A stretch of 64,000 nt of DNA. It comes from Candidatus Gottesmanbacteria bacterium (lineage in GTDB: Bacteria; Patescibacteriota; Microgenomatia; UBA10105; UBA927). A program made the translations under genes and the position numbers. Under the pieces are notes generated by a model. The model had not been told where the DNA came from. It was given only the letters and a program-made list of their open reading frames with translations, and searched no databases. The stretch lies in assembly GCA_963714095.1 (NCBI GenBank), contig OY970230.1:959907-1023906 (forward strand), written 5' to 3'. How positions within the stretch are numbered: the stretch's first letter is position 1; every line of letters starts with the position of its first letter. This document shows, piece after piece, positions 1 through 10,049 of this stretch.

Positions 1-5
1 CAATT

Positions 6-548
6 ATGGACCTCACGGGTTGGTCACGGGAAAAAACGGTCGAGGAATTTCATAAACTCCATAAGGTGACGATACAAAGTGCAACGGCGGTTATTGCCAA
101 ACTCTGTCATATATCAATTCCCGAAGCCGCAGTTGCTTCCGAGAAACGGTTTGACCGGCGAGATTATGTCCATCGAGATGAGAAGCTGATTGCCATGTTT
201 CAACATCTTAAGAATTTCCGTCATTTCATACTTGCAAACGGTGTGAAGCAATATCACATAGAAACCCTTAAAGTATTAGGAATTGCGCCCGAGATATTTG
301 AAGAAATAGTCACCAGTGAAACAATTGGGGTTACCAAACCTGATGATAAGGGGTTCCGCTATATTATGAAAAAAACGGGATTACCGCCCGCGGCGCACCT
401 GATGGTCGGCGACAGGGAACTTGTGGATCTGGCGCCGGCAAAAAAGTTGGGTATGCACACATGTCTTGTATGGAACGAGACTAAGAGTGCGTTTGCGGAT
501 GTCACCCTGCCGACTGTCTACGACGTCGCAACATTATTTTCTGCCTAA
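6..548 (+). CDS. HAD-superfamily hydrolase (putative phosphatase/nucleotidase), 5' end probably cut by the window edge
   Basis: C-terminal HAD motifs (K..., GDxxxD in 'GVTKPDDKGF...HLMVGDRELVDL'). The ORF runs to the window edge and is the first gene of the nucleotide-kinase operon. Confidence 0.6.
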   Translation: MDLTGWSREKTVEEFHKLHKVTIQSATAVIAKLCHISIPEAAVASEKRFDRRDYVHRDEKLIAMFQHLKNFRHFILANGVKQYHIETLKVLGIAPEIFEEIVTSETIGVTKPDDKGFRYIMKKTGLPPAAHLMVGDRELVDLAPAKKLGMHTCLVWNETKSAFADVTLPTVYDVATLFSA

Positions 549-559
549 CGATTCATCGT

Positions 560-1036
560 ATGCATATTTCGTATCTAGAACAGGCGATTGCGCGATTGCG
601 CGACGGGGAGTTCGGTCCCGGGGATCCGCGGACAGCGAGTTTGTTTAGTACGTCCGGCGCGGCATTATCATTTGAAAATCGGCGGAAGATTTTAGAGATG
701 GAACTGGGAACGTTGAAGGATATTGAGCGACAAGAAGCGTTGGGTGAAAAACACCGCCGCGAGTTTTGGTCGGATTCGTTGAATCTTGCAGAAAAACTGA
801 ACGGTACGGTTCGTTTTGTTGCCGCATATGCCAATATCCCTCCCGAAAAAATTGCTGATACACTAGCAATTGTACAGGGAGAGGGGGCAACGGTTATTCG
901 GCTCGAAGATTCGTTATACCACTATCTTGAAATAGATATGCCGGGTCAGCCAGTTTATATTGCACCGAAAGCAATATTGCCTGAAACAAAGATACATCTT
1001 CTTAAAACGGTTGCCGGTCTCGGGATCAAGTACTAG
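560..1036 (+). CDS. hypothetical protein
   Basis: 158-aa ORF on the same strand, packed between the HAD gene and the tmk paralog. No family recognised. Confidence 0.45.
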   Translation: MHISYLEQAIARLRDGEFGPGDPRTASLFSTSGAALSFENRRKILEMELGTLKDIERQEALGEKHRREFWSDSLNLAEKLNGTVRFVAAYANIPPEKIADTLAIVQGEGATVIRLEDSLYHYLEIDMPGQPVYIAPKAILPETKIHLLKTVAGLGIKY

Positions 1037-1039
1037 TAT

Positions 1040-1591
1040 GTGCATATGAAACGGGGAAAACTTATCGTTTTTGAAGGCGTGAGCGGGACGGGAAAAGAGA
1101 CGCAGGCAAAAATGCTGCAAGCATTTTTGAAAAAAAAAGGCATAATTTCTCACATCGCATTTCATCCCTCGCCGGAATTGAAAAAAGACTTGAAAATGGC
1201 TACATCTGTGCAGCAGCAGATTGCACTCCTGGCTCGTGACAGACGCAACAGGGTACGGCACCTCATTCTTCCGGCACTGCGCCGCGGGGAATGGGTGATA
1301 AGTCTTCGTAATTATGTGAGCGCGTATGTCTATCAGGGGGACGGGTCGCTATTGCAAGCATTTGATCCGAAACCCGACTGGCTGTTTTATTTTGACATAG
1401 AACCGGAAATTTCAATGAAGAGAATTGTGTCACGGGGCGGTATCCGCGGAACTTATGAGACGATGACATTGTTAGATGAAAAACGAAAAAGATATAAAGA
1501 AGTACTCAAAACCATTCCGCATATTCCGATCGATGCATCGGAGAGCATTCTTTCGCTGCATAACAAAATCGTTTCCTATATACCGTTGTAA
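1040..1591 (+). CDS. dTMP-kinase-family paralog (divergent nucleoside-monophosphate kinase)
   Basis: P-loop 'LIVFEGVSGTGKETQ'. The 'YVYQGDG' and 'PDWLFYFDIEPE' segments align with tmk 'IAYQGYG' and 'PDLVILLDAPP'. It lacks the 'TREPGG' segment of canonical Tmk. Confidence 0.6.
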   Translation: MHMKRGKLIVFEGVSGTGKETQAKMLQAFLKKKGIISHIAFHPSPELKKDLKMATSVQQQIALLARDRRNRVRHLILPALRRGEWVISLRNYVSAYVYQGDGSLLQAFDPKPDWLFYFDIEPEISMKRIVSRGGIRGTYETMTLLDEKRKRYKEVLKTIPHIPIDASESILSLHNKIVSYIPL

Positions 1592-1641
1592 TATTTTTTC
1601 TTCTTGCACTTTATCCGGTTTTTCACTAGGATGATTTTTGT

Positions 1642-2286
1642 ATGAAGCGCGGATATTTTATTGTTTTTGAAGGCGGTGAAGGATCGGGAAAATCCGTTCA
1701 GGTTAAATTGCTTGCGGATTCCCTGCGGGATACGGGGAAGACAGTCGTTGTTACGCGTGAACCGGGCGGGACCCGCATCGGTGAACAAATCCGTGCGATC
1801 ACGCATAACACGGAAAATGTGGATTTGGATCCGGTTGCAGAGGCGTATCTTATGGCAGCATCGCGTGCCCAGCATGTCCGCGAAACGATTGCGCCAGCCC
1901 TTGAGGACGGAAAAATTGTCATTTCCGACCGGTTTGTGGACAGCAGTATTGCCTATCAGGGATACGGCAGAAATTTAGGAGCGAAGGAAATTGTAGCGTT
2001 AAATACATTGGCAGTCGACGGAGTAACACCGGATCTTGTTATTCTTCTGGATGCGCCGCCTACTGTGGGACTCGCGCGGCTGGAAAAAGAAGGCAAACGG
2101 AAAGACCGGATGGATATGCAGCAAAAAGATTTTTATGAACGCGTGCACGCGGGATATTTGGCTCTTGCAAAAAATAATCCGTCGCGGTATCTTGTCGTAG
2201 ATGCGACGAAACCGATTGAAGACGTTGCATTTTCTATTTGGAAAATTGTTACAAACGTTCTGAATAAACGAAATGGCAAAGACTAA
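1642..2286 (+). CDS. tmk: thymidylate kinase
   Basis: 'FIVFEGGEGSGKS', 'VTREPGGT', 'DRFVDSSIAYQG' and 'DLVILLDAPP' are canonical Tmk motifs. Confidence 0.9.
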   Translation: MKRGYFIVFEGGEGSGKSVQVKLLADSLRDTGKTVVVTREPGGTRIGEQIRAITHNTENVDLDPVAEAYLMAASRAQHVRETIAPALEDGKIVISDRFVDSSIAYQGYGRNLGAKEIVALNTLAVDGVTPDLVILLDAPPTVGLARLEKEGKRKDRMDMQQKDFYERVHAGYLALAKNNPSRYLVVDATKPIEDVAFSIWKIVTNVLNKRNGKD

Positions 2287-2860
2287 CCATCCAGGAAAGG
2301 GTAAGCTCACTGTTATTGCCGGCCCGATGTTTGCAGGCAAAACAACAAAACTCCTTACGCTCTTCAGTGTCCTTTCAAATTTGGGGTACAGCGTTCTCTG
2401 TTTTAAAGCGGAGGCAATGAGCAACGGCGGCATGGGACACACGAAATCTCATGACGAACGCCCGCTTCCGGTAATTTATATCGACATGAAAAAACCGGAA
2501 AAAATTTTGGAGTATGTCGGAGGTCAGGGAATTAAAAAGGTGATTATTGATGCCGTTCATTTTTTCCCGAAAATAGAATTCATCGCCGTTGTACAAAAAT
2601 TACTGACGCAGGGGATTGATGTGTATGTGAACGGACTTATTTATGATTACAGAAAAAAAGAATACGGTGCGACGAAGACTCTGATGAAGATGGCGGACGA
2701 ATGTATCGAGCAATTCAGTATCTGCGTTAAATGCGGAGGGAAAGCTGCCCACACTGAACGCATCGCCGGTCCCGCGCAGTTGTCCATCGGCACGACCGGC
2801 CCGGTTGCCGCAAAATATATAGCCGTCTGTGCCGCCTGCCACAAAATATATAAGGGATGA
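2273..2860 (+). CDS. tdk: thymidine kinase
   Basis: 'LTVIAGPMFAGKTT' P-loop, 'VIIDAVHFF' and a C-terminal CxxC...CxxC zinc ribbon are type II TK hallmarks. It overlaps tmk by 14 nt. Confidence 0.85.
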   Translation: MAKTNHPGKGKLTVIAGPMFAGKTTKLLTLFSVLSNLGYSVLCFKAEAMSNGGMGHTKSHDERPLPVIYIDMKKPEKILEYVGGQGIKKVIIDAVHFFPKIEFIAVVQKLLTQGIDVYVNGLIYDYRKKEYGATKTLMKMADECIEQFSICVKCGGKAAHTERIAGPAQLSIGTTGPVAAKYIAVCAACHKIYKG

Positions 2861-3722
2861 TAAATAAAGGACCGGACGGTCAGCAACTTCATTTTGAACA
2901 AAATTTCATTCTTATACCCGGTCCTTTCGGTGCCGGTAAAACACATACAGTTGGTTTGATTAATAATTTCTTTTTCGAGCATAATCTTTGGTACGGTAAA
3001 CCAGTTACGGATGCGGTGTATATAGAAGCTGCGCTTGAAGCAGATCACCGGTTTAACGAAGGCGTCAATCACATGCATGATAATCAGACGCGTCCGGAAA
3101 AACATGAACATTACCCGGGTGAGCCGAATTTACATTTTAGTGTGACAGGTCCGTACATTCCTCATTTTATGCATAAACATTTGTTTGAGGATTTGTCCCG
3201 TGGGTTTTTCGATAATTATTTGTTCCCGGTTGAATGGTCCGGCGGAGGGAATACAAATCCTGAAGGACATCCGGCATCGCACGCGGATTATTCATTTAAG
3301 ACTCAAGTAGAAGGAATGCAAAGCGGTATATATATGAAAGCGATTGGTTATCAAAAGTACTGCTCGTCATTCATCCACTTGTACCTGATGGTGGTGGTAG
3401 AGAGCAATTAAATGGTCGCCGTAAAGGAAGACGCGATCCTACACAAACCGAAATTGAATCAGGTATGGGCAGTTGGTGGATTCCAGATGCTGGCATGAAG
3501 ATAACAGGCCATAATGATTTTCCTGAGGTGATTCCGATTCTAGAAAATATGGGACTGGGAGGAAAAATTCACGTTATTCCTAATGACGGCGGAGAAGGAT
3601 ATGATAGGCAGCTTCGTAGAATTTTAGAAGAGAAAATCGGACCGATGTTGGACAAAGAAGGCCACCCATACTGGCCAGAAGGTAACCCACATACTTCAGC
3701 TCGCGAAAGGGATCGGCGATGA
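2857..3722 (+). pseudogene. novel P-loop NTPase paralog 1, disrupted by a +2 frameshift in a (TA)4 tract; fragments are 2857..3411 and 3465..3722
   Basis: Both fragments align colinearly to the intact paralog at 3719..4507: 'ADHRFNEGVNHMHDNQ' vs 'AHDHKFHEGRNHMHEGQ', and 'NDFPEVIPILENMGL' vs 'DDFPVFQHFLESHGV'. The frame switches at tatatatat (3327..3335). Removing one TA restores 'SGIYESDWVSKVLLVIHPL', which matches 'SGEFATEWVPRVLTVLHPS'. Confidence 0.7.
3327..3335 (+). repeat. (TA)4T dinucleotide tract at the frameshift point
   Basis: Read directly: 'ggtatatatatgaaag'. Dinucleotide repeats are classic slippage sites. Confidence 0.8.
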
Positions 3723-4507
3723 AAAATATCATTTTAGTCACCGGGCCGATTTCGGACGGGAAGTCATTTTTGATAACAGGTCTACGGGAGGAATTTGCGC
3801 GCCGTGGAATTCCGCAGTCGCTTGAGGTGATATCCGACGGTAAATTTTTACTGGATGCAGTCGCACATGACCATAAATTCCATGAAGGGCGCAATCACAT
3901 GCATGAAGGACAACAAATACCCACAGCACATTACCACGGCGACGGGTGGCAGAATAAATATGATTTTGTTGCAACGGGACGGGAAATACAGACATTTATG
4001 TTTGCCAATTTTTTTCGCCAGCTTGAATGGATTCGGGACTCTGGACAGATCGTTTTTGCAGAACTTGCGGGCGGTGATGGAGTGTATAAAAAAGACAATC
4101 CACTCGCGGCAAATGATTACTCATATGCCCGCATTGTCGATGGGTTGAATTCGGGTGAATTCGCTACGGAATGGGTACCCCGTGTTCTTACCGTTCTTCA
4201 TCCGTCGTCTGAATTTTCCGATCGGATTGCATGGAATAGGAATCGCCTCAGCCATCCGCCAACAGAAGATGAAATTATGGGGGGTCGCGCTTCGTGGGGA
4301 GTGCCTGAAATGGTTATGGGGAATACAGCTTACGATGATTTTCCCGTGTTTCAACATTTTTTGGAATCGCACGGCGTGAATCCATTCAATATCGAAACGA
4401 TTCACAATTCCGGCGGACCAGAATTGTACCAAGGTGCAATTGCTTCGTTGGAACGGCAGGGGATCGGGTTGCCCCCCGAACGACAAACAAGAGGAAAGGA
4501 GTTTTGA
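3719..4507 (+). CDS. novel P-loop NTPase/kinase-like protein, paralog 2 (intact) with a His-rich HxHKFHEGRNHMHEG motif
   Basis: Walker A 'LVTGPISDGKS' and Walker B-like 'IVFAELAGGDG'. The ATGA overlaps its neighbours on both sides. No known family recognised. Confidence 0.7.
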   Translation: MKNIILVTGPISDGKSFLITGLREEFARRGIPQSLEVISDGKFLLDAVAHDHKFHEGRNHMHEGQQIPTAHYHGDGWQNKYDFVATGREIQTFMFANFFRQLEWIRDSGQIVFAELAGGDGVYKKDNPLAANDYSYARIVDGLNSGEFATEWVPRVLTVLHPSSEFSDRIAWNRNRLSHPPTEDEIMGGRASWGVPEMVMGNTAYDDFPVFQHFLESHGVNPFNIETIHNSGGPELYQGAIASLERQGIGLPPERQTRGKEF

Positions 4508-5253
4508 TGAATATAAATACTATAGTTATTGCAGGAGCGCCTGCGTCAGGAAAATCAGTCGGAAAAGATATCATTTCAAATCAATTATCGCGTGATGGAT
4601 TTTATGTTATAGGAATGACAGACAGGATGGAATTAGAACGGGTCGTTGCAAACGAAATGCGCGGACGTGCACCTAATCCGAACGGATCAGTTGAAAGTGA
4701 AAATACAATTCTTCTTAACCCTTCGGCCGATCCAAAATTTTGGGGAATGGAATTTAAAACTGCGTGGGCACTCAATAGAGCGCATGAGGAGATGTTTGCG
4801 ACTATACGGGATTTAAGCCGTGAAAATGATCCGGGCAGGATTATTGTCGCAGAGATTGCATACGGCGAAGATGCTCCGTATCCCAGGGGTCCGCTTCGGC
4901 AATCGGCCGGGGAGTTTGTTGCCGCGTTTGTGAAACAGGGAATTTTACATCGTATGTTACTGTTGGATATACAGGCCTCTCATGAAACGCGTCGTGATTG
5001 GAATAAAAAGCGTACAGTTGGCCGTATCCCTTCAGAGGAATTTGATTTGTATTTTAAAGACGGAGGAGGATTCGGGAGTCAGGAAATACGGCTCCTCGGG
5101 GAGAGGTATCATTCTATTAAAAATGAAGGGATTACTCCTCGAGAATTCGCCAGTCTGCTGTATGGTGAGTATGATACATTTATTGTACCGGGAATTCGCG
5201 GGGAGGGGCAACGAACGAGCGAGGAATTTTTGAATCCCCGGACACGACGATGA
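4504..5253 (+). CDS. P-loop NTPase/kinase-like protein, divergent paralog 3
   Basis: Walker A 'IAGAPASGKS'. 'IVAEIAYGEDAPYPRGPL' aligns with 'VFAELAGGDGVYKKDNPL' of paralog 2. It is ATGA-coupled on both sides. Confidence 0.65.
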   Translation: MMNINTIVIAGAPASGKSVGKDIISNQLSRDGFYVIGMTDRMELERVVANEMRGRAPNPNGSVESENTILLNPSADPKFWGMEFKTAWALNRAHEEMFATIRDLSRENDPGRIIVAEIAYGEDAPYPRGPLRQSAGEFVAAFVKQGILHRMLLLDIQASHETRRDWNKKRTVGRIPSEEFDLYFKDGGGFGSQEIRLLGERYHSIKNEGITPREFASLLYGEYDTFIVPGIRGEGQRTSEEFLNPRTRR

Positions 5254-5840
5254 AAACAACAGTTTATCTAATTCGCCACGGGGCGTATGAAAACCCGAAG
5301 AAAATTTTGCACGCAAGGTTGCCGGGGTTTCCGTTATCCGCAGATGGCAAAAAGATGGCTGAGCGTATCGCGTCGTATTTATCACAAAAACCGATTGTTG
5401 CCGTATACAGCAGCCGTCTCTCTCGGGCCTATCAAACCGCGGAAATTATCGCAAAGAAGCATCATCTGCCGATAGTTACCGATCGCCGTCTTCTGGATAT
5501 CCGCACACCGCTGCAGGGGAAACCGAAGGCATATATTGACAGCATCGACTCGGAGTTTTATACAGAAGATCTTATCCGTGCCGGCGGGGAACGGCTGGAA
5601 GATGTATATACACGCATGGACAGGTTTATCCGTTCAAAAGTTCATTCCCATGCAGGACAATCGATCGTTGTCGTCTCCCACGGTGATCCAATTATGAGTA
5701 TTGCGACAAAATATGAAGGCAAACCCTTGCCGCGAAAATATTCGTTCAGGGAGTGGTATGTGCCGCAAGCGTCGGGATTCAAAATAGAGTTTGATGAAGA
5801 AACACGGAAAAAGAAGATTACTAAAATTCCGTTACCATGA
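5250..5840 (+). CDS. histidine phosphatase superfamily (phosphoglycerate-mutase-like) protein 1
   Basis: N-terminal 'LIRHGAYENP' carries the RHG catalytic motif. 'VVVSHGDPIMS' supplies the C-terminal His. Confidence 0.8.
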   Translation: MKTTVYLIRHGAYENPKKILHARLPGFPLSADGKKMAERIASYLSQKPIVAVYSSRLSRAYQTAEIIAKKHHLPIVTDRRLLDIRTPLQGKPKAYIDSIDSEFYTEDLIRAGGERLEDVYTRMDRFIRSKVHSHAGQSIVVVSHGDPIMSIATKYEGKPLPRKYSFREWYVPQASGFKIEFDEETRKKKITKIPLP

Positions 5841-6433
5841 AACAGACGACAGTGTACCTTATCCGCCACGGAGCATACGAAAATCCCAAACACGTAAACC
5901 CCGGCCGACTCCCCGGATTTCCGTTATCCGCTGAGGGGAAAAAACAAGCGTCCGTTTTGGCAGAATTATTTTCAAAAATACCTGTCAGCTCGATCTATGC
6001 AAGCCCGATCACGCGAACACTGGAAACTGCCACGATTATCGCGCAGAAACTTAATCTTTTGGTTGTGAGGGATGACCGTCTTTTGGAAGTACGGTCGCCG
6101 TTTAATGGAGCTCCGGTTGAGGTGGTAGATGCGCTTGCATATGCCGGTGAAATGTATACACCCAAATATTTTAAGCAGGGATTAGAACATATACCTCAAT
6201 TCTTCCGGCGTATGGATGACTGCTTGAAAGATATTGTTCAACGGGAGCAGGGGAAGCAGGTTGTTGTTGTATCCCACGGAGATCCGATGATGTCCGTGTG
6301 GTTCAGATATAACGGCCTTGACTGGTCGAAAGGGTTTGCACTTGGTAATTGGTTTGTCCCGATGGGAACCGGTTTTACAATAGTATTTGATACCAAAGGA
6401 AAGCCTCTACGTTTCACCAAATTTCCCGCTTGA
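5837..6433 (+). CDS. histidine phosphatase superfamily protein 2 (tandem paralog)
   Basis: 'LIRHGAYENPKH...VVVSHGDPMMS' is colinear with the preceding gene. It has an ATGA overlap. Confidence 0.8.
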   Translation: MKQTTVYLIRHGAYENPKHVNPGRLPGFPLSAEGKKQASVLAELFSKIPVSSIYASPITRTLETATIIAQKLNLLVVRDDRLLEVRSPFNGAPVEVVDALAYAGEMYTPKYFKQGLEHIPQFFRRMDDCLKDIVQREQGKQVVVVSHGDPMMSVWFRYNGLDWSKGFALGNWFVPMGTGFTIVFDTKGKPLRFTKFPA

Positions 6434-6594
6434 CACCGGTACTTTGTACCAGTAGACTGAAAAAAAGCGCAGTCAGATATAAATCTCAAGCGCCTTTTTC
6501 TTTTTTTCTCACGTAACGCCATCCGTCAGCTGACGGACGTAGGTCACCAAATGAAAAAACAGAAGCAGAAATATCGTAATAGTTTTATTTTTCC

Positions 6595-6617
6595 AAAGCC
6601 CCCTTGCGGGGTTTTTT
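6595..6617 (+). terminator. rho-independent terminator closing the kinase/phosphatase operon
   Basis: 'aaagcccccttgcggggtttttt' forms a GC stem (cccc/gggg) with a ttgc loop, followed by a T6 run. Confidence 0.6.
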
Positions 6618-6624
6618 GCGTTTT

Positions 6625-7476
6625 ATGGGGTTAGAGTCACAATATTATTTTCAGATCGTCACATCCAATCGTCAGCGTGCACTCGCAATTCAACAGGCGT
6701 TACCCGGCGGGAGGAGCGTTCATTTTTCCTTCAGTCCGGTGAACGAGGATTTGGCAAAGGGGATAGAGAGTGGCGACCATGTTTCTATTCCTGACGCACT
6801 CTCACACGTACAACACGTTGCAGAATATAAAGGTCAAAGGGATTTTGTTACCGTAGGAAACACAGAAGGAGCACTGGATCAACTTCTCTATATCGGAAAA
6901 CCACGGGAAGATGCGCAGGGGTTTCCTTATTTAGCACGCGTGACGATTGATTCCAGTCAATTAGTGTTTGAAGATCCTCATATTGTCCGTTTATTGCAGA
7001 AACCACTTGGGAGCGAATTATTACATCTGCCCGACAAATTGTCCGGCAGACGAACTGCGATTATTACCGCTATCACTCGGATTGTTGCTCCGCTTGAGGA
7101 ATCACTTGCGACTTCTAAACAGGATCTCATAGCTCATATGTCTACTGTGATCGTTATGACGAGTTATACGTTGCAGTCATTTACAAGACAACAATATAAA
7201 GATTTTGTGTTTGAGGTGGGCGGGCCCGAACGTATTCGAAATGTCGCCGGCGGATTGCCGTTTGCTGATAATCCATTTGTAGATACCAGAGAACCCTATG
7301 AGATTCGCATGGTCAATCCTCATAGTTACGGTGAACAGGTACTAGATAGGGGATGGAATTGGGAAGAATTGAATCGGAGTCAATGTGTGCACGGTGCATT
7401 TCCGGATGCATTGCAAAGTCTTTTAGTAGAACCGGGAGTTCCCCTCGCGCGTTCCGGTGATATATTTAAACGATGA
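6625..7476 (+). CDS. hypothetical protein
   Basis: The listed ORF starts at a TTG inside the terminator. The ATG at 6625 ('MGLESQYYF') is the more likely start. No family recognised. Confidence 0.45.
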   Translation: MGLESQYYFQIVTSNRQRALAIQQALPGGRSVHFSFSPVNEDLAKGIESGDHVSIPDALSHVQHVAEYKGQRDFVTVGNTEGALDQLLYIGKPREDAQGFPYLARVTIDSSQLVFEDPHIVRLLQKPLGSELLHLPDKLSGRRTAIITAITRIVAPLEESLATSKQDLIAHMSTVIVMTSYTLQSFTRQQYKDFVFEVGGPERIRNVAGGLPFADNPFVDTREPYEIRMVNPHSYGEQVLDRGWNWEELNRSQCVHGAFPDALQSLLVEPGVPLARSGDIFKR

Positions 7477-7499
7477 TGTTTTAGATCATCCCGACCGTC

Positions 7500-8270
7500 C
7501 TACTTCGTCTCATGTGAATCGGCGAGGTATGTAAAGAGTTTTTTAGTTGCCTCAGTTGCCTCAATTGGTCCGCCTTTTTGAGGAGGATTGAGGATGAGGA
7601 AATCCGCAACACTTCCGGCTTTCTTTATTTCTTTAGCGGCATTATGGATGCGCCATGCTGCTTCGTCTGGATTCCGTTGTTCAATTATTCTTTGAGCTAA
7701 ATCAACGAACGGCATTTGTGGCAAAATAAAAGCGACATGACTTTGAACTTCCGGGTGATTTTTTGCCAGCCATTTTATAATTTTAGGTAGTCCATTTTCT
7801 TCACCGCGCCAGACGACAATTTTGCTTCCACTGCGTAGTGACTTTTCCATTTCTTCTACTGTTGTTCCAAAAAGTCCGGCTTTTTCCGGCTGAAATTCGA
7901 TAAATGCCCCCTGTTGTTTGAGATCGGAAAATTGTTGTCCACTGACAAAACGGTGCTTTTCTCGTACCGCAGTATGTATTCGTTCTTCTCTGGTAGTGTG
8001 CGTAATAATGAGGTTATACATATTAGGAGGAAGACTTTGAAGTACAGTATCTTTTCCTGATGCAGAAGGCCCCATAAATGCGATGAGGTGTTGTTCATTT
8101 AATGGCGCAATATTCTTTATTCCCCAAATAAGTGGATGTATATGTGCGAGTTGGTGAAATTCCATGAAATCAGGATTGACCGTTGATAACATCTCCGGAC
8201 CCATTGGCATTTCAGCCGGGAAAGGAAGCTGTTTTAGTATGTCGCTGGCTAGTTCTGCACGCACGGTCAT
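7500..8270 (-). CDS. gmk: guanylate-kinase-family protein with a ~60-aa N-terminal extension
   Basis: 'IAFMGPSASGKDT' P-loop and 'ITHTTREER' (the HTTR motif). 'FIEFQPEKAGLFGTT' matches the E. coli Gmk 'FLEHAEVFGNYYGTS' segment, with 'AFILPQ' against 'IFILPPS' as a second anchor. Confidence 0.65.
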   Translation of the reverse strand: MTVRAELASDILKQLPFPAEMPMGPEMLSTVNPDFMEFHQLAHIHPLIWGIKNIAPLNEQHLIAFMGPSASGKDTVLQSLPPNMYNLIITHTTREERIHTAVREKHRFVSGQQFSDLKQQGAFIEFQPEKAGLFGTTVEEMEKSLRSGSKIVVWRGEENGLPKIIKWLAKNHPEVQSHVAFILPQMPFVDLAQRIIEQRNPDEAAWRIHNAAKEIKKAGSVADFLILNPPQKGGPIEATEATKKLFTYLADSHETK

Positions 8271-8331
8271 AAGAAGGGAATTATATCATTTTTAGCCTAT
8301 AATATCAATATTTCTTAAAAATAGCATAACT

Positions 8332-8340
8332 TGGTATAAT
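8332..8340 (+). promoter_or_regulatory. extended -10 promoter TGgTATAAT
   Basis: A TGnTATAAT consensus sits 12 nt before the ATG at 8353. Confidence 0.4.
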
Positions 8341-8352
8341 GTGAATCTTCTT

Positions 8353-8712
8353 ATGAAGAATAAAATAGAAGAAAACAGGATTCCGGATTATGAAGGCGGC
8401 CCGATATTACGTAAATATTTTGGGAACGGTGAACTGGGTGAATATTGTTTTCAACTAATTACGATACATCACATTGCATGTGATACCCTTGTGGGTCCCA
8501 ATGGAGAGTCTTGCGGAAAGCCTGCAATAGGCACGACGGAATATGATCTTGCAGGAGAGCTTATGATAAAGGGTCATTGTAGTATGGCACATCACAACGC
8601 AATAAAAACAGCTGTAGAGCAAGAATTGAAGGATCAAGGTGAAGGTCGAATGACTGCTTTTGGTATCAATGGATGGGGTAGAAGTTCTGGGAACTTGTTA
8701 TTCAGAAAATAA
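8353..8712 (+). CDS. hypothetical small Cys/His-rich protein
   Basis: ORF 8341..8712, using the ATG at 8353. It has several Cys and His residues (CDTLVGPNGESCGK...GHCSMAHHN). Confidence 0.4.
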   Translation: MKNKIEENRIPDYEGGPILRKYFGNGELGEYCFQLITIHHIACDTLVGPNGESCGKPAIGTTEYDLAGELMIKGHCSMAHHNAIKTAVEQELKDQGEGRMTAFGINGWGRSSGNLLFRK

Positions 8713-8729
8713 TTCCGTATGATAACCCC

Positions 8730-10049
8730 ATGATCCTTGCTAAAACCGACCCGGAGATTGCCAAACTTATTGCTGCAGAAGAAAAACGCCAGAAAGACGT
8801 GCTGGAGATGATTCCGTCTGAGAATTACGCATCTGCTGCGGTACGGGAGGCAATCGGGTCGGTGTTAACAAACAAATACTCCGAAGGATACGCGTACAGG
8901 CGGTATTACCAGGGAAACCGTTTTATCGATGATATTGAAATTCTTGCGATCGAGCGGGCTAAAAAGCTGTTCGGTGTTCCGCACGTCAATGTCCAGCCGT
9001 ACTCGGGGTCTCCGGCAAATTCCGCAATTTACTTCGCTCTTCTTAACGCAAACGATACCATCATGGGCCTTAAACTTTCAGCCGGCGGGCACCTCACGCA
9101 CGGGCATCCGGGAGTGACATTTTCCGGCAAGTATTTTCAGTCAGCCCAATATGATGTCGAGGCTACTGGCGAGATTGATATGGATAAGGCCGCTGTGTTT
9201 GCAAAAACGGTGAAACCACGGATTATCGTTGTCGGCACGACTGCGTATCCGCGTATTTTCGATTGGAAACGGTGGCGCATGATTGCGGACAGCGTTGGCG
9301 CATATTTTCTTGCGGATATTTCCCACATCGTGGGTCTTGTAGTAGGAGGCGTACATCCGTCTCCGGTGCCGTACGCAGATTTGATTATGACCACCACGCA
9401 TAAAACGCTTCGCGGCCCGCGCGGCGCGATGATTCTGGTAACGAATCAGGGGTTGAAAAAAGATCCCCAGATGGGAGATAAAATTGACAAAGCTGTTTTT
9501 CCGGGGCTCCAGGGCGGGCCGCACGATAATGTTACGGCAGCAATCGCGGTGGCGCTTAAGGAAGCGGGGACACCGACATTTAAGAAATACACCGAGCAAA
9601 TCGTTGTAAATGCAAAAATTCTGAGTGAAACATTACTGAGCGAGGGATTTACGCTTACGACCGGAGGCACGGATAACCATCTTATGGTTGTTGATTTGCG
9701 TCCGCAGGGAGTCGTGGGAAACATTGCAGCTGAGGCGTTAGAGGCAGCAGGAATTGTTGTAAACCGGAATAGCGTACCGCACGATCCAAATCCGCCATTT
9801 TACCCATCAGGGATCCGGCTCGGTACGCCTGCCATTACAACCAGAGGAATGAAGGAAACGGAGATGAAGGTGATTGGGAAGTGGATTGCGGAAGTCATAA
9901 AAGAAGTTTCCGGTAGTCCGTTACCTGGGACAAAGGAAGAACGCATCGCGTATCTTAAAAAATTCCGTTCATCTGTTGCAAAAAATAAGCATCTTGCCAA
10001 AATTTGCGCGGACGTCAAAACCCTCACCACGCGCTTCCCTTTGCCGTAA
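8730..10049 (+). CDS. glyA: serine hydroxymethyltransferase
   Basis: 'TTTHKTLRGPRG' PLP-lysine motif, with full-length SHMT colinearity. Confidence 0.95.
   Translation: MILAKTDPEIAKLIAAEEKRQKDVLEMIPSENYASAAVREAIGSVLTNKYSEGYAYRRYYQGNRFIDDIEILAIERAKKLFGVPHVNVQPYSGSPANSAIYFALLNANDTIMGLKLSAGGHLTHGHPGVTFSGKYFQSAQYDVEATGEIDMDKAAVFAKTVKPRIIVVGTTAYPRIFDWKRWRMIADSVGAYFLADISHIVGLVVGGVHPSPVPYADLIMTTTHKTLRGPRGAMILVTNQGLKKDPQMGDKIDKAVFPGLQGGPHDNVTAAIAVALKEAGTPTFKKYTEQIVVNAKILSETLLSEGFTLTTGGTDNHLMVVDLRPQGVVGNIAAEALEAAGIVVNRNSVPHDPNPPFYPSGIRLGTPAITTRGMKETEMKVIGKWIAEVIKEVSGSPLPGTKEERIAYLKKFRSSVAKNKHLAKICADVKTLTTRFPLP

Follow-up and report, generated by a model that had tools for sequence, protein, structure and literature searches.

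Overview of the operon

The DNA analysed here is a 64-kb stretch of a Candidatus Gottesmanbacteria bacterium (contig OY970230.1), referred to as the window, and all coordinates are window positions. Its first 6.6 kb contain an operon in which genes for a thymidylate kinase paralog, a canonical dTMP kinase (Tmk) and a thymidine kinase (TK) are followed by three tandem genes for P-loop kinases, here called Pk (P1, P2 and P3), and by two histidine phosphatase genes. Pk is a new family inside the known P-loop kinase fold, named in no database searched, and the region is best read as a deoxynucleotide-salvage operon of a small-genome bacterium. Related loci on other contigs carry L-numbers and individual Pk family members P00xx numbers.

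From the DNA alone, an operon built on tmk-tdk had been proposed in which nucleotide kinases and phosphatases are tightly coupled (the original prediction), and this proposal is supported. Its gene order, running from a HAD hydrolase and a hypothetical gene through the Tmk paralog, tmk, tdk and the P-loop genes to two histidine phosphatases, was recovered on the plus strand, and the gmk-like gene and glyA adjoin the operon as described. All six successive overlapping junctions were found: a 14-nt overlap at 2273/2286, ATGA at 2857, 3719, 5250 and 5837, and TTGATG at 4504-4509. A crude gene call covering the entire window shows overlaps at 17 of its 57 same-strand junctions, the operon's six forming the longest run. 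The overlaps of the proposed co-translated unit are present, whereas co-translation itself is a reading of those overlaps. Three related P-loop genes exist in tandem, but just two of them (P2 and P3) are intact while P1 is frameshifted. The gene content of the window is bacterial housekeeping, and no rRNA was found within it.

Table 1 Features of the operon and its downstream flank.
Feature	Position	Strand	Remarks
HAD-IA hydrolase	6-548	+	5' end lost at window edge (~37 residues); Pfam HAD_2 2.6e-12
Hypothetical protein, 158 aa	560-1036	+	Partly conserved
Tmk paralog (Tmk')	1040-1591	+	Pfam Thymidylate_kin 3.6e-23; TIGR00041 93.3 bits (cut-off 83.25)
Canonical dTMP kinase Tmk	1642-2286	+	Pfam 1.6e-53; TIGR00041 200 bits
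Thymidine kinase TK	2273-2860	+	Pfam TK 3.4e-25; TK of related loci 73-90% identical
Pk-A1 (P1), P-loop kinase of the His-rich subtype, frameshifted	2857-3722	+	Pieces 2857-3411 and, in another frame, 3300/3336-3722
TA dinucleotide run with 2-nt insertion	3327-3335	+	Window AGCGGTATATATATGAA; L011 orthologue AGCGGTATGTACGAA
Pk-A2 (P2), intact P-loop kinase of the His-rich subtype, 262 aa	3719-4507	+	
Pk-C (P3), intact P-loop kinase of the second subtype, 248 aa	4507-5253	+	Alternative TTG start at 4504
Histidine phosphatase 1, RHG motif	5250-5840	+	Pfam His_Phos_1 7e-34
Histidine phosphatase 2, RHG motif	5837-6433	+	Pfam His_Phos_1 2.5e-28
Terminator-like hairpin	6595-6615	+	160 nt past the last stop codon
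Variable segment	6625-8712	both	Hypothetical 6625-7476 (+), gmk-like 7500-8270 (-), hypothetical 8341-8712 (+)
glyA (SHMT), conserved downstream anchor of the cluster	8730-10049	+	Pfam SHMT 3.2e-152

Pk is a distinct family of P-loop kinases

A profile search run exhaustively with HMMER over 1.84 billion cluster representatives returned 161 Pk representatives at E <= 1e-3, including 89 at E <= 1e-10 and 34 at E <= 1e-30. Almost all measure 240-280 aa and are matched along their entire length; another five fuse two domains in tandem and reach about 500 aa. The exhaustive search was needed to reveal the family because a word-indexed search of 5.8 billion proteins gave only about a dozen relatives. 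BLAST clustering and profile comparison divide the family into two subtypes, Pk-A (P1 and P2, 74 full-length members) and Pk-C (P3, 48 full-length members). The two subtypes align by hhalign over about 210 columns with 99.5% probability and E ~1e-22 (plain BLASTP E = 8e-4), and P3 is therefore a true but distant paralog.

The P-loop proteins had originally been described as belonging to no known family, and no curated family emerged for them across the Pfam, NCBIfam, PHROGs, PADLOC and PDB searches. P2 and frame-repaired P1 have no match in Pfam, NCBIfam or PHROGs, and PADLOC gave none for P2 and just a P-loop-level match to PtuA for P1 (E 0.059). P3 has a sub-threshold Pfam match to AAA_33 alone (16.6 bits, cut-off 27). 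P2 found no match among PDB sequences, and the family profiles produced Walker-A-level matches only when compared with the PDB. When 73 members were scanned singly against Pfam, no match was better than E = 2e-5, and those obtained were to generic P-loop (AAA-type) models. The gathering scores of AAA_33, Zeta toxin and polynucleotide kinase were not reached, weak matches occurring in five (AAA_33) and seven (Zeta) of the 73 with a best E of ~1e-3. Family-wide, PADLOC (anti-phage defence) and PHROGs returned P-loop-level noise only (E >= 0.02), the IMG/VR viral contigs contained no Pk relatives, and no described equivalent was found in the searchable literature on the Candidate Phyla Radiation (CPR)/Patescibacteria.

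Nucleotide kinase families were compared individually. Pk shares both superfamily and operon with the Tmk and deoxynucleoside kinase (dNK) families, but the DR(Y/F), REPGGT and ERS motifs are absent from it. P1-P3 are not matched by the thymidylate kinase models PF02223 and TIGR00041 or by the deoxynucleoside kinase model PF01712, for which hhalign covers only 23-27 P-loop columns. Profile-profile alignment to Tmk and dNK is generally confined to the P-loop, except for a weak match of Pk-C to Tmk (76%). The lid pattern RI..R.R of Pk may be dNK-like. Matches to the uridine kinase/PRK model PF00485 are weak. Judged by fold, polyphosphate channel and ppx/CHAD context, Pk could not be placed among the PPK2/PPK3 polyphosphate kinases. 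Its fold also differs from the ferredoxin-like fold of nucleoside diphosphate kinase (PF00334), whose NxxHGSD motif was not found within the 64-kb window.

Predicted structure and conserved residues

The original prediction had suggested structure prediction as a way to remote similarities, and AlphaFold2 models of P2 (pLDDT 82.8) and P3 (pLDDT 89.0; pTM 0.84 for both) place Pk in the P-loop kinase fold of the dNK, nucleoside monophosphate (NMP) kinase and zeta-like proteins. Structure comparison of P3 gave 15.2 for the putative kinase 2rhm, 14.5 for both KTI12 and PSTK and 13.9 for APS kinase; a BFVD structure search gave weak kinase matches only. The predicted fold is that of a generic P-loop kinase, and the ranking of matches favours no substrate class. 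Pk displays the hallmarks of the superfamily, namely a Walker A motif, an NMP-kinase-like α/β fold, an acidic residue in Walker B and, following strand 4, a lid that carries Arg. Identity is 7-16%, both to the structure matches and to superfamily members such as adenylate/NMP kinases, gluconate kinase, chloramphenicol phosphotransferase, APS kinase and AAA_33-type 2rhm, and no HMM reaches threshold. In contrast to these enzymes, Pk continues at the C-terminus for about 80 more residues, which carry conserved DDF and I-x-N-x-G motifs and lie outside the part that can be aligned to known kinases. Pk-A further adds an invariant Asp/His/His/His set, and TK-linked members add a basic tail.

Residue conservation was assessed over 73-89 Pk representatives. 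Walker A (GxxxxGK[ST]) reads GPFGAGKT in P1, GPISDGKS in P2 and GAPASGKS in P3, with G14 and K15 invariant in 73 sequences. D40, immediately after strand 2, is conserved family-wide, as are E115 and G119 (AExxxG) at the end of the Walker-B strand (residues 111-117 of the model). The lid helix (residues 166-178 of the model) carries conserved R169, N173 and R176 in an R-x3-N-x2-R pattern. E115 and R169 are each conserved in at least 90% of the 73 sequences, while R176 is invariant in a 13-sequence Pk-A alignment and conserved in at least 90% of a 17-sequence alignment of the three paralog groups. N230 and G232 are conserved in the I-x-N-x-G loop after strand 5, a region that, judged from the modelled topology, would correspond to where related kinases bind adenine.

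The subtypes differ on the acceptor side. In the loop that links helix 2 to the following strand, D51, H60, H62 and H71 are invariant in Pk-A, and this cluster probably forms a metal site, although the loop is a low-confidence part of the model. Pk-C lacks the Asp/His/His/His set and carries a conserved R131 in place of D133 of Pk-A. Of the motifs originally described as common to all three paralogs, Walker A and the Walker B-like motif are indeed shared, whereas the His-rich block is restricted to P1 and P2. Tandem fusions combine the subtypes as A+A (P0017, P0020 and P0021), A+C (P0040, locus L015) and C+C (P0030), and in two of them, P0020 and P0040, the Walker-A lysine has been lost from one half (GGQS and GRTT). 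Because such fusions occur, some with a degenerate Walker A in one half, it is suggested that Pk proteins function in pairs, as dimers, and that one of the two partners can lose its catalytic role. Among loci of known context, only TK-linked members end in the tail (P/G)EG...R-x-(K/R)-E, and for this reason the conserved basic tail may serve to dock Pk to a salvage partner.

Gene neighbourhood of Pk

The original prediction tied its case to the recurrence of this P-loop family beside tmk/tdk in other genomes, and the adjacency of Tmk, TK and Pk was found at 12 distinct loci (the window, L008, L011, L017, L019, L021, L022, L023, L024, L026, L034 and L042). The combination named in advance as refuting the prediction, placement in an unrelated well-characterised family without any conserved neighbourhood, therefore did not arise. 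On the long contigs among these (L008, L011, L017, L019, L021, L022, L023, L026, L034 and L042) the common order is dcd, further upstream, then glmS on the minus strand, dNK, HAD, a small open reading frame (ORF) that may be missing, Tmk paralog, Tmk and TK. These are followed by one to three Pk genes or a fusion, up to two histidine phosphatases, variable genes and SHMT, rpsB, tsf and frr. In most cases Pk has a histidine phosphatase gene behind it. The glyA/SHMT gene is syntenic in all long related loci, and ATGA coupling of Pk to TK is conserved among related loci. L008 has the gene order of the window over a stretch that begins at dNK, includes the Pk genes and ends with SHMT, rpsB, tsf and frr; this locus (also L014, contig CAZEVT010000002.1) represents the single species-representative genome in which a genome contig scan found Pk.

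In L024/L025 a distant Pk-A (profile E = 1.5e-8) follows an HD-Tmk fusion and TK, and nothing else is common with the window. The minimal recurring unit is Tmk-TK-Pk, since L024/L025 keep it in an otherwise unrelated context. The fusion in L024 (434-1636, 400 aa) joins Tmk to an HD phosphohydrolase domain and is another kinase/phosphohydrolase pairing in the same pathway. L001 encodes a fusion of a nucleoside 2-deoxyribosyltransferase-like domain with Tmk (8879-9994, 371 aa) and has no TK. Overall, the linkage to TK holds at 12 loci but is not universal, as a soil lineage carries Pk alone.

The interval between TK and SHMT varies in content, with a weak Maf match and DUF488 in L011 and an adenosine deaminase and an IMPDH/GMP-reductase-like gene in L017. 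In the window, the genes at 6625-8712 (a 283-aa hypothetical protein, the gmk-like gene and a 123-aa hypothetical protein) have no counterpart in any related locus, and the TK-to-glyA interval behaves as a variable island. The gmk-like protein is divergent, with a 60-aa N-terminal extension and a Pfam Guanylate_kin match of 1.1e-10. Altogether, the nucleotide enzymes surrounding Pk include dcd, dNK, the pyrimidine-nucleotidase-like HAD, the weak Maf match, adenosine deaminase, the IMPDH/GMP-reductase-like gene, the gmk-like gene and SHMT. Beside dcd, L023 encodes a 520-aa protein (1438-3000) with MtrA-like, archaeal-type thymidylate synthase and pterin-binding (DUF4346) domains.

Proposed function and alternative explanations

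We hypothesize, and give the idea an even chance, that Pk proteins are ATP-dependent kinases of (deoxy)nucleoside/nucleotide salvage that form homo- or heterodimers and are countered by the phosphatases. Their acceptor would be a (deoxy)nucleoside or a nucleotide from thymidine/dNTP salvage, one partner of the homo- or heterodimer possibly being non-catalytic, and TK-linked members may dock to a partner via the basic C-terminal tail. In favour of the hypothesis are the conserved catalytic residues, the homology of the two subtypes, the recurrent Tmk-TK-Pk adjacency, the nucleotide enzymes encoded around it and the ATGA overlaps, while the dimer idea draws on the five fusions. The HAD hydrolase and the histidine phosphatases would supply the opposing dephosphorylation, either for pool balance or for clean-up. 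Kinase/phosphatase substrate cycles are established in the control of dNTP pools in other organisms. The original prediction also considered synthesis of a modified nucleotide, an idea that found no supporting evidence and was dropped, as no methylase, hydroxymethylase, glycosyltransferase or amino-acid transferase is present in any locus.

Several observations weigh against the salvage hypothesis. The TK-linked loci are mostly syntenic, so that their conservation reflects inheritance in part rather than selection. Identity to the window is 73-90% for TK, 65-78% for Tmk and 49-85% for SHMT, compared with 41-64% for the phosphatases and 27-64% for Pk; Pk and the phosphatases thus diverge much faster than their neighbours and vary in copy number, which is unusual in a core salvage step. 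In L016 the Pk genes adjoin a transketolase. Further, only two Arg are conserved family-wide, both in the lid, so that the acceptor group may be either a hydroxyl or a phosphate. The Asp that follows strand 2 and the pattern [ST]D[GSA]x[FY] may resemble those of hydroxyl-phosphorylating kinases such as uridine kinase, while an acceptor phosphate would likewise suit the cationic features on the acceptor side. Finally, about 11 of the 17 loci found in a Pk-A pattern scan of metagenomes, based on a narrower alignment, lack TK, Tmk, a phosphatase and SHMT alike over the 3-5 kb around Pk-A.

These stand-alone Pk-A loci come mostly from soil samples (contigs L027, L029, L031, L032, L033, L038 and L039) and have a GC content of 0.34-0.45. 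The soil proteins keep all family motifs, and a hydrophobic, membrane-anchor-like C-terminal extension replaces the basic tail. Neighbouring genes in L027, L029, L032 and L037 include those for a convergent AAA_16 + Trans_reg_C protein (L027, L029 and L032), a TGS + STAND NTPase of ~990 aa (L032), transposases (L027 and L037), a CHAP-domain protein and a subtilase. L031, L038 and L039 have flanking ORFs of similar size in matching positions, which in L038 and L039 also share orientation.

These data could alternatively be explained by a fast-evolving, copy-variable module for regulation, detoxification or conflict that occupies the variable slot between TK and glyA in one lineage and has no specific relation to thymidine salvage. 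Such a module would account for the hypervariable interval, for the gap in identity between Pk and TK and for L019, whose SHMT is the closest to that of the window (84.5%) and which nevertheless has a single Pk (41% identity) and a single phosphatase. The soil homologues, with their hydrophobic tails and their STAND, AAA_16, TGS and transposase neighbours, also fit. However, L024 retains Tmk-TK-Pk in a wholly different neighbourhood, the ATGA coupling to TK is conserved, PADLOC and PHROG searches gave no matches and viral contigs no relatives, and at the soil loci the STAND genes run convergently to Pk instead of in its orientation. We regard this explanation as unlikely. A specific form of the salvage hypothesis is that Pk catalyzes the third step of the pathway, converting dTDP (or dNDPs) to the triphosphate, in which case TK, Tmk and Pk would together lead from thymidine to dTTP and replace nucleoside diphosphate kinase. 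The minimal Tmk-TK-Pk module with overlapping genes, kept even where nothing else is shared, favours this assignment, as does the tail confined to TK-linked members, and the cationic acceptor site (the His/Asp cluster of Pk-A, Arg131 of Pk-C) could hold a diphosphate. A non-specific nucleoside diphosphate (NDP) kinase would not be expected to occur as one to three rapidly diverging paralogs, though, and some genomes carry Pk alone. No P-loop kinase is known to phosphorylate NDPs to triphosphates with ATP. A third-step role appears decidedly unlikely. A more far-reaching proposal, which we put forward with considerable doubt, is a partly metal-dependent (His3/Asp) family that completes a tail-docked TK-Tmk-Pk metabolon and performs a dNTP/NTP salvage step lacking a canonical enzyme in these reduced genomes. 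Candidates for this step are the conversion of NDPs to NTPs and the phosphorylation of the remaining nucleosides, and the paralogs would split substrates or form catalytic/regulatory heterodimers.

Two further explanations draw on known kinase-phosphatase pairs. In archaeal PPK3, one Tmk paralog is catalytic and another regulatory, and both are encoded together with the histidine phosphatase SixA (bioRxiv 10.1101/2024.08.28.610084). Its operon, which contains SixA, PPX and two Tmk paralogs acting as catalytic and regulatory subunits, resembles the Pk operon in combining tandem P-loop kinase paralogs with a histidine phosphatase (bioRxiv 10.1101/2024.08.28.610084). Polyphosphate-linked kinases like PPK2 or the heteromeric PPK3 would also agree with the basic tails and with the one degenerate P-loop in some two-domain fusions, as in class II PPK2. 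Unlike the PPK3 subunits, Pk is not part of the Tmk family, and no PPX or CHAD gene is found here. A polyphosphate role is considered highly improbable. Alternatively, Pk and the histidine phosphatase might constitute a pair like T4 Pnk, with 3'-phosphatase and 5'-kinase activities, that turns 3'-phosphorylated breakdown products or RNA/DNA ends into 5'-phosphorylated ones. Pk scores no better against such enzymes than against small-molecule kinases, neither a ligase nor Hen1 nor any further repair partner is encoded nearby, and L023 and L024 have no phosphatase. In contrast to KTI12, PSTK and polynucleotide kinase, Pk lacks a tRNA- or RNA-binding domain and sits in a context of nucleotide metabolism, not RNA repair. 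An end-processing role is considered very unlikely. Pk also differs from 6-phosphofructo-2-kinase/fructose-2,6-bisphosphatase in that kinase and phosphatase are separate genes and no sugar metabolism is encoded around them; its score for this enzyme does not exceed that for other kinases.

Bacteria whose genomes are very small rely on salvaged nucleosides, and their nucleotide pathways often look incomplete. The Pk family (161 clusters, usually behind Tmk-TK) is a concrete candidate for one missing step, and it would add to the P-loop kinases a distinct branch marked by a probable His/Asp metal site and by a tail that would dock to a partner. Should the substrate turn out to be ordinary, the gain would mainly be one of annotation for a narrow group of uncultured bacteria. 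Pk is a solid lead on an enzyme family still to be characterised, not a system of a new kind.

Frameshift in P1

Frame 0 of P1 stops at 3411, and the C-terminal 129 codons lie in another frame that is open from 3300. Once 2 nt are removed from the TA run, the frame encodes 287 aa, and this protein can be aligned over its whole length with P2 and intact orthologues; such orthologues (277-281 aa) are present in L008 and L011, and the 281-aa protein of L011 is 64% identical to repaired P1 over the full length. The Logan assembly of run ERR11571142 is identical to the window over 13,377 nt, frameshift included, so the shift is not particular to one assembler. It represents either a recent pseudogene or a sequencing error in the dinucleotide repeat. 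Programmed frameshifting was rejected as an explanation, as the TA run needs a 2-nt correction and has no canonical slippery heptamer.

Tmk paralog and phosphatases

The Tmk paralog clears the hidden Markov model (HMM) cut-offs of thymidylate kinase (82.6 bits for Pfam) yet lacks its catalytic motifs. In the window, SLRNY replaces SDR(F/Y) and REPGGT is missing. All eight orthologues compared (window, L008, L011, L017, L019, L021, L022 and L023) have S-L-R-N/S-Y/W/C in place of the catalytic SDR(F/Y), and REPGGT is absent throughout. From its motifs, the paralog is probably not a canonical dTMP kinase, and automatic annotation would mis-name it. No canonical Tmk is visible in the L017 and L022 clusters. 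In both, the canonical Tmk slot between the paralog and TK holds a 224-aa protein that matches Pfam ParB-CE (PF24392) (L017 8709-9383; L022 8687-9358).

The HAD alignment begins at about residue 39 of 217-aa orthologues. The orthologue in L019 matches the Pyr-5-nucltdase and YjjG models, both below cut-off, and by sequence the HAD protein resembles a pyrimidine 5'-nucleotidase, though its scores stay under the cut-offs of those models. The hypothetical protein encoded immediately downstream has no match in Pfam, NCBIfam or PHROG and is 42% identical over 92 aa to a small protein in the equivalent position of L011.

Both phosphatases belong to histidine phosphatase branch 1, scoring 117.6 and 99.5 bits against a cut-off of 21.7 and each having the RHG motif and a second catalytic His; LIRHG and SHGDP occur in both. 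Neither reaches an NCBIfam equivalog, with PspA, CobC and dPGM all below cut-off. They are different orthologue types: phosphatase 1 is orthologous to the single phosphatase of L001, L008, L011 and L021, while phosphatase 2 shares loop sequence with the phosphatase of L019, a locus that keeps only a P1-like kinase.

Spacer downstream of the operon

A single terminator had been proposed to close the operon at 6595. The hairpin exists, but it lies at a distance from the last stop codon, and a promoter-like site (6430-6458, TTGACA/TAGACT) and an earlier T-rich hairpin intervene. Terminator-like sites are not enriched, 14 being found compared with 11.8 expected from shuffles. A riboswitch or small RNA at 6434-6624 was rejected, as Rfam gave sub-threshold chance matches only and the fold z-score is -1.65. 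The 190-nt spacer (6434-6624) contains a hairpin of an A-run, GCGC and a T-run near 6466-6505, a short ORF from about 6552 and the hairpin at 6595.

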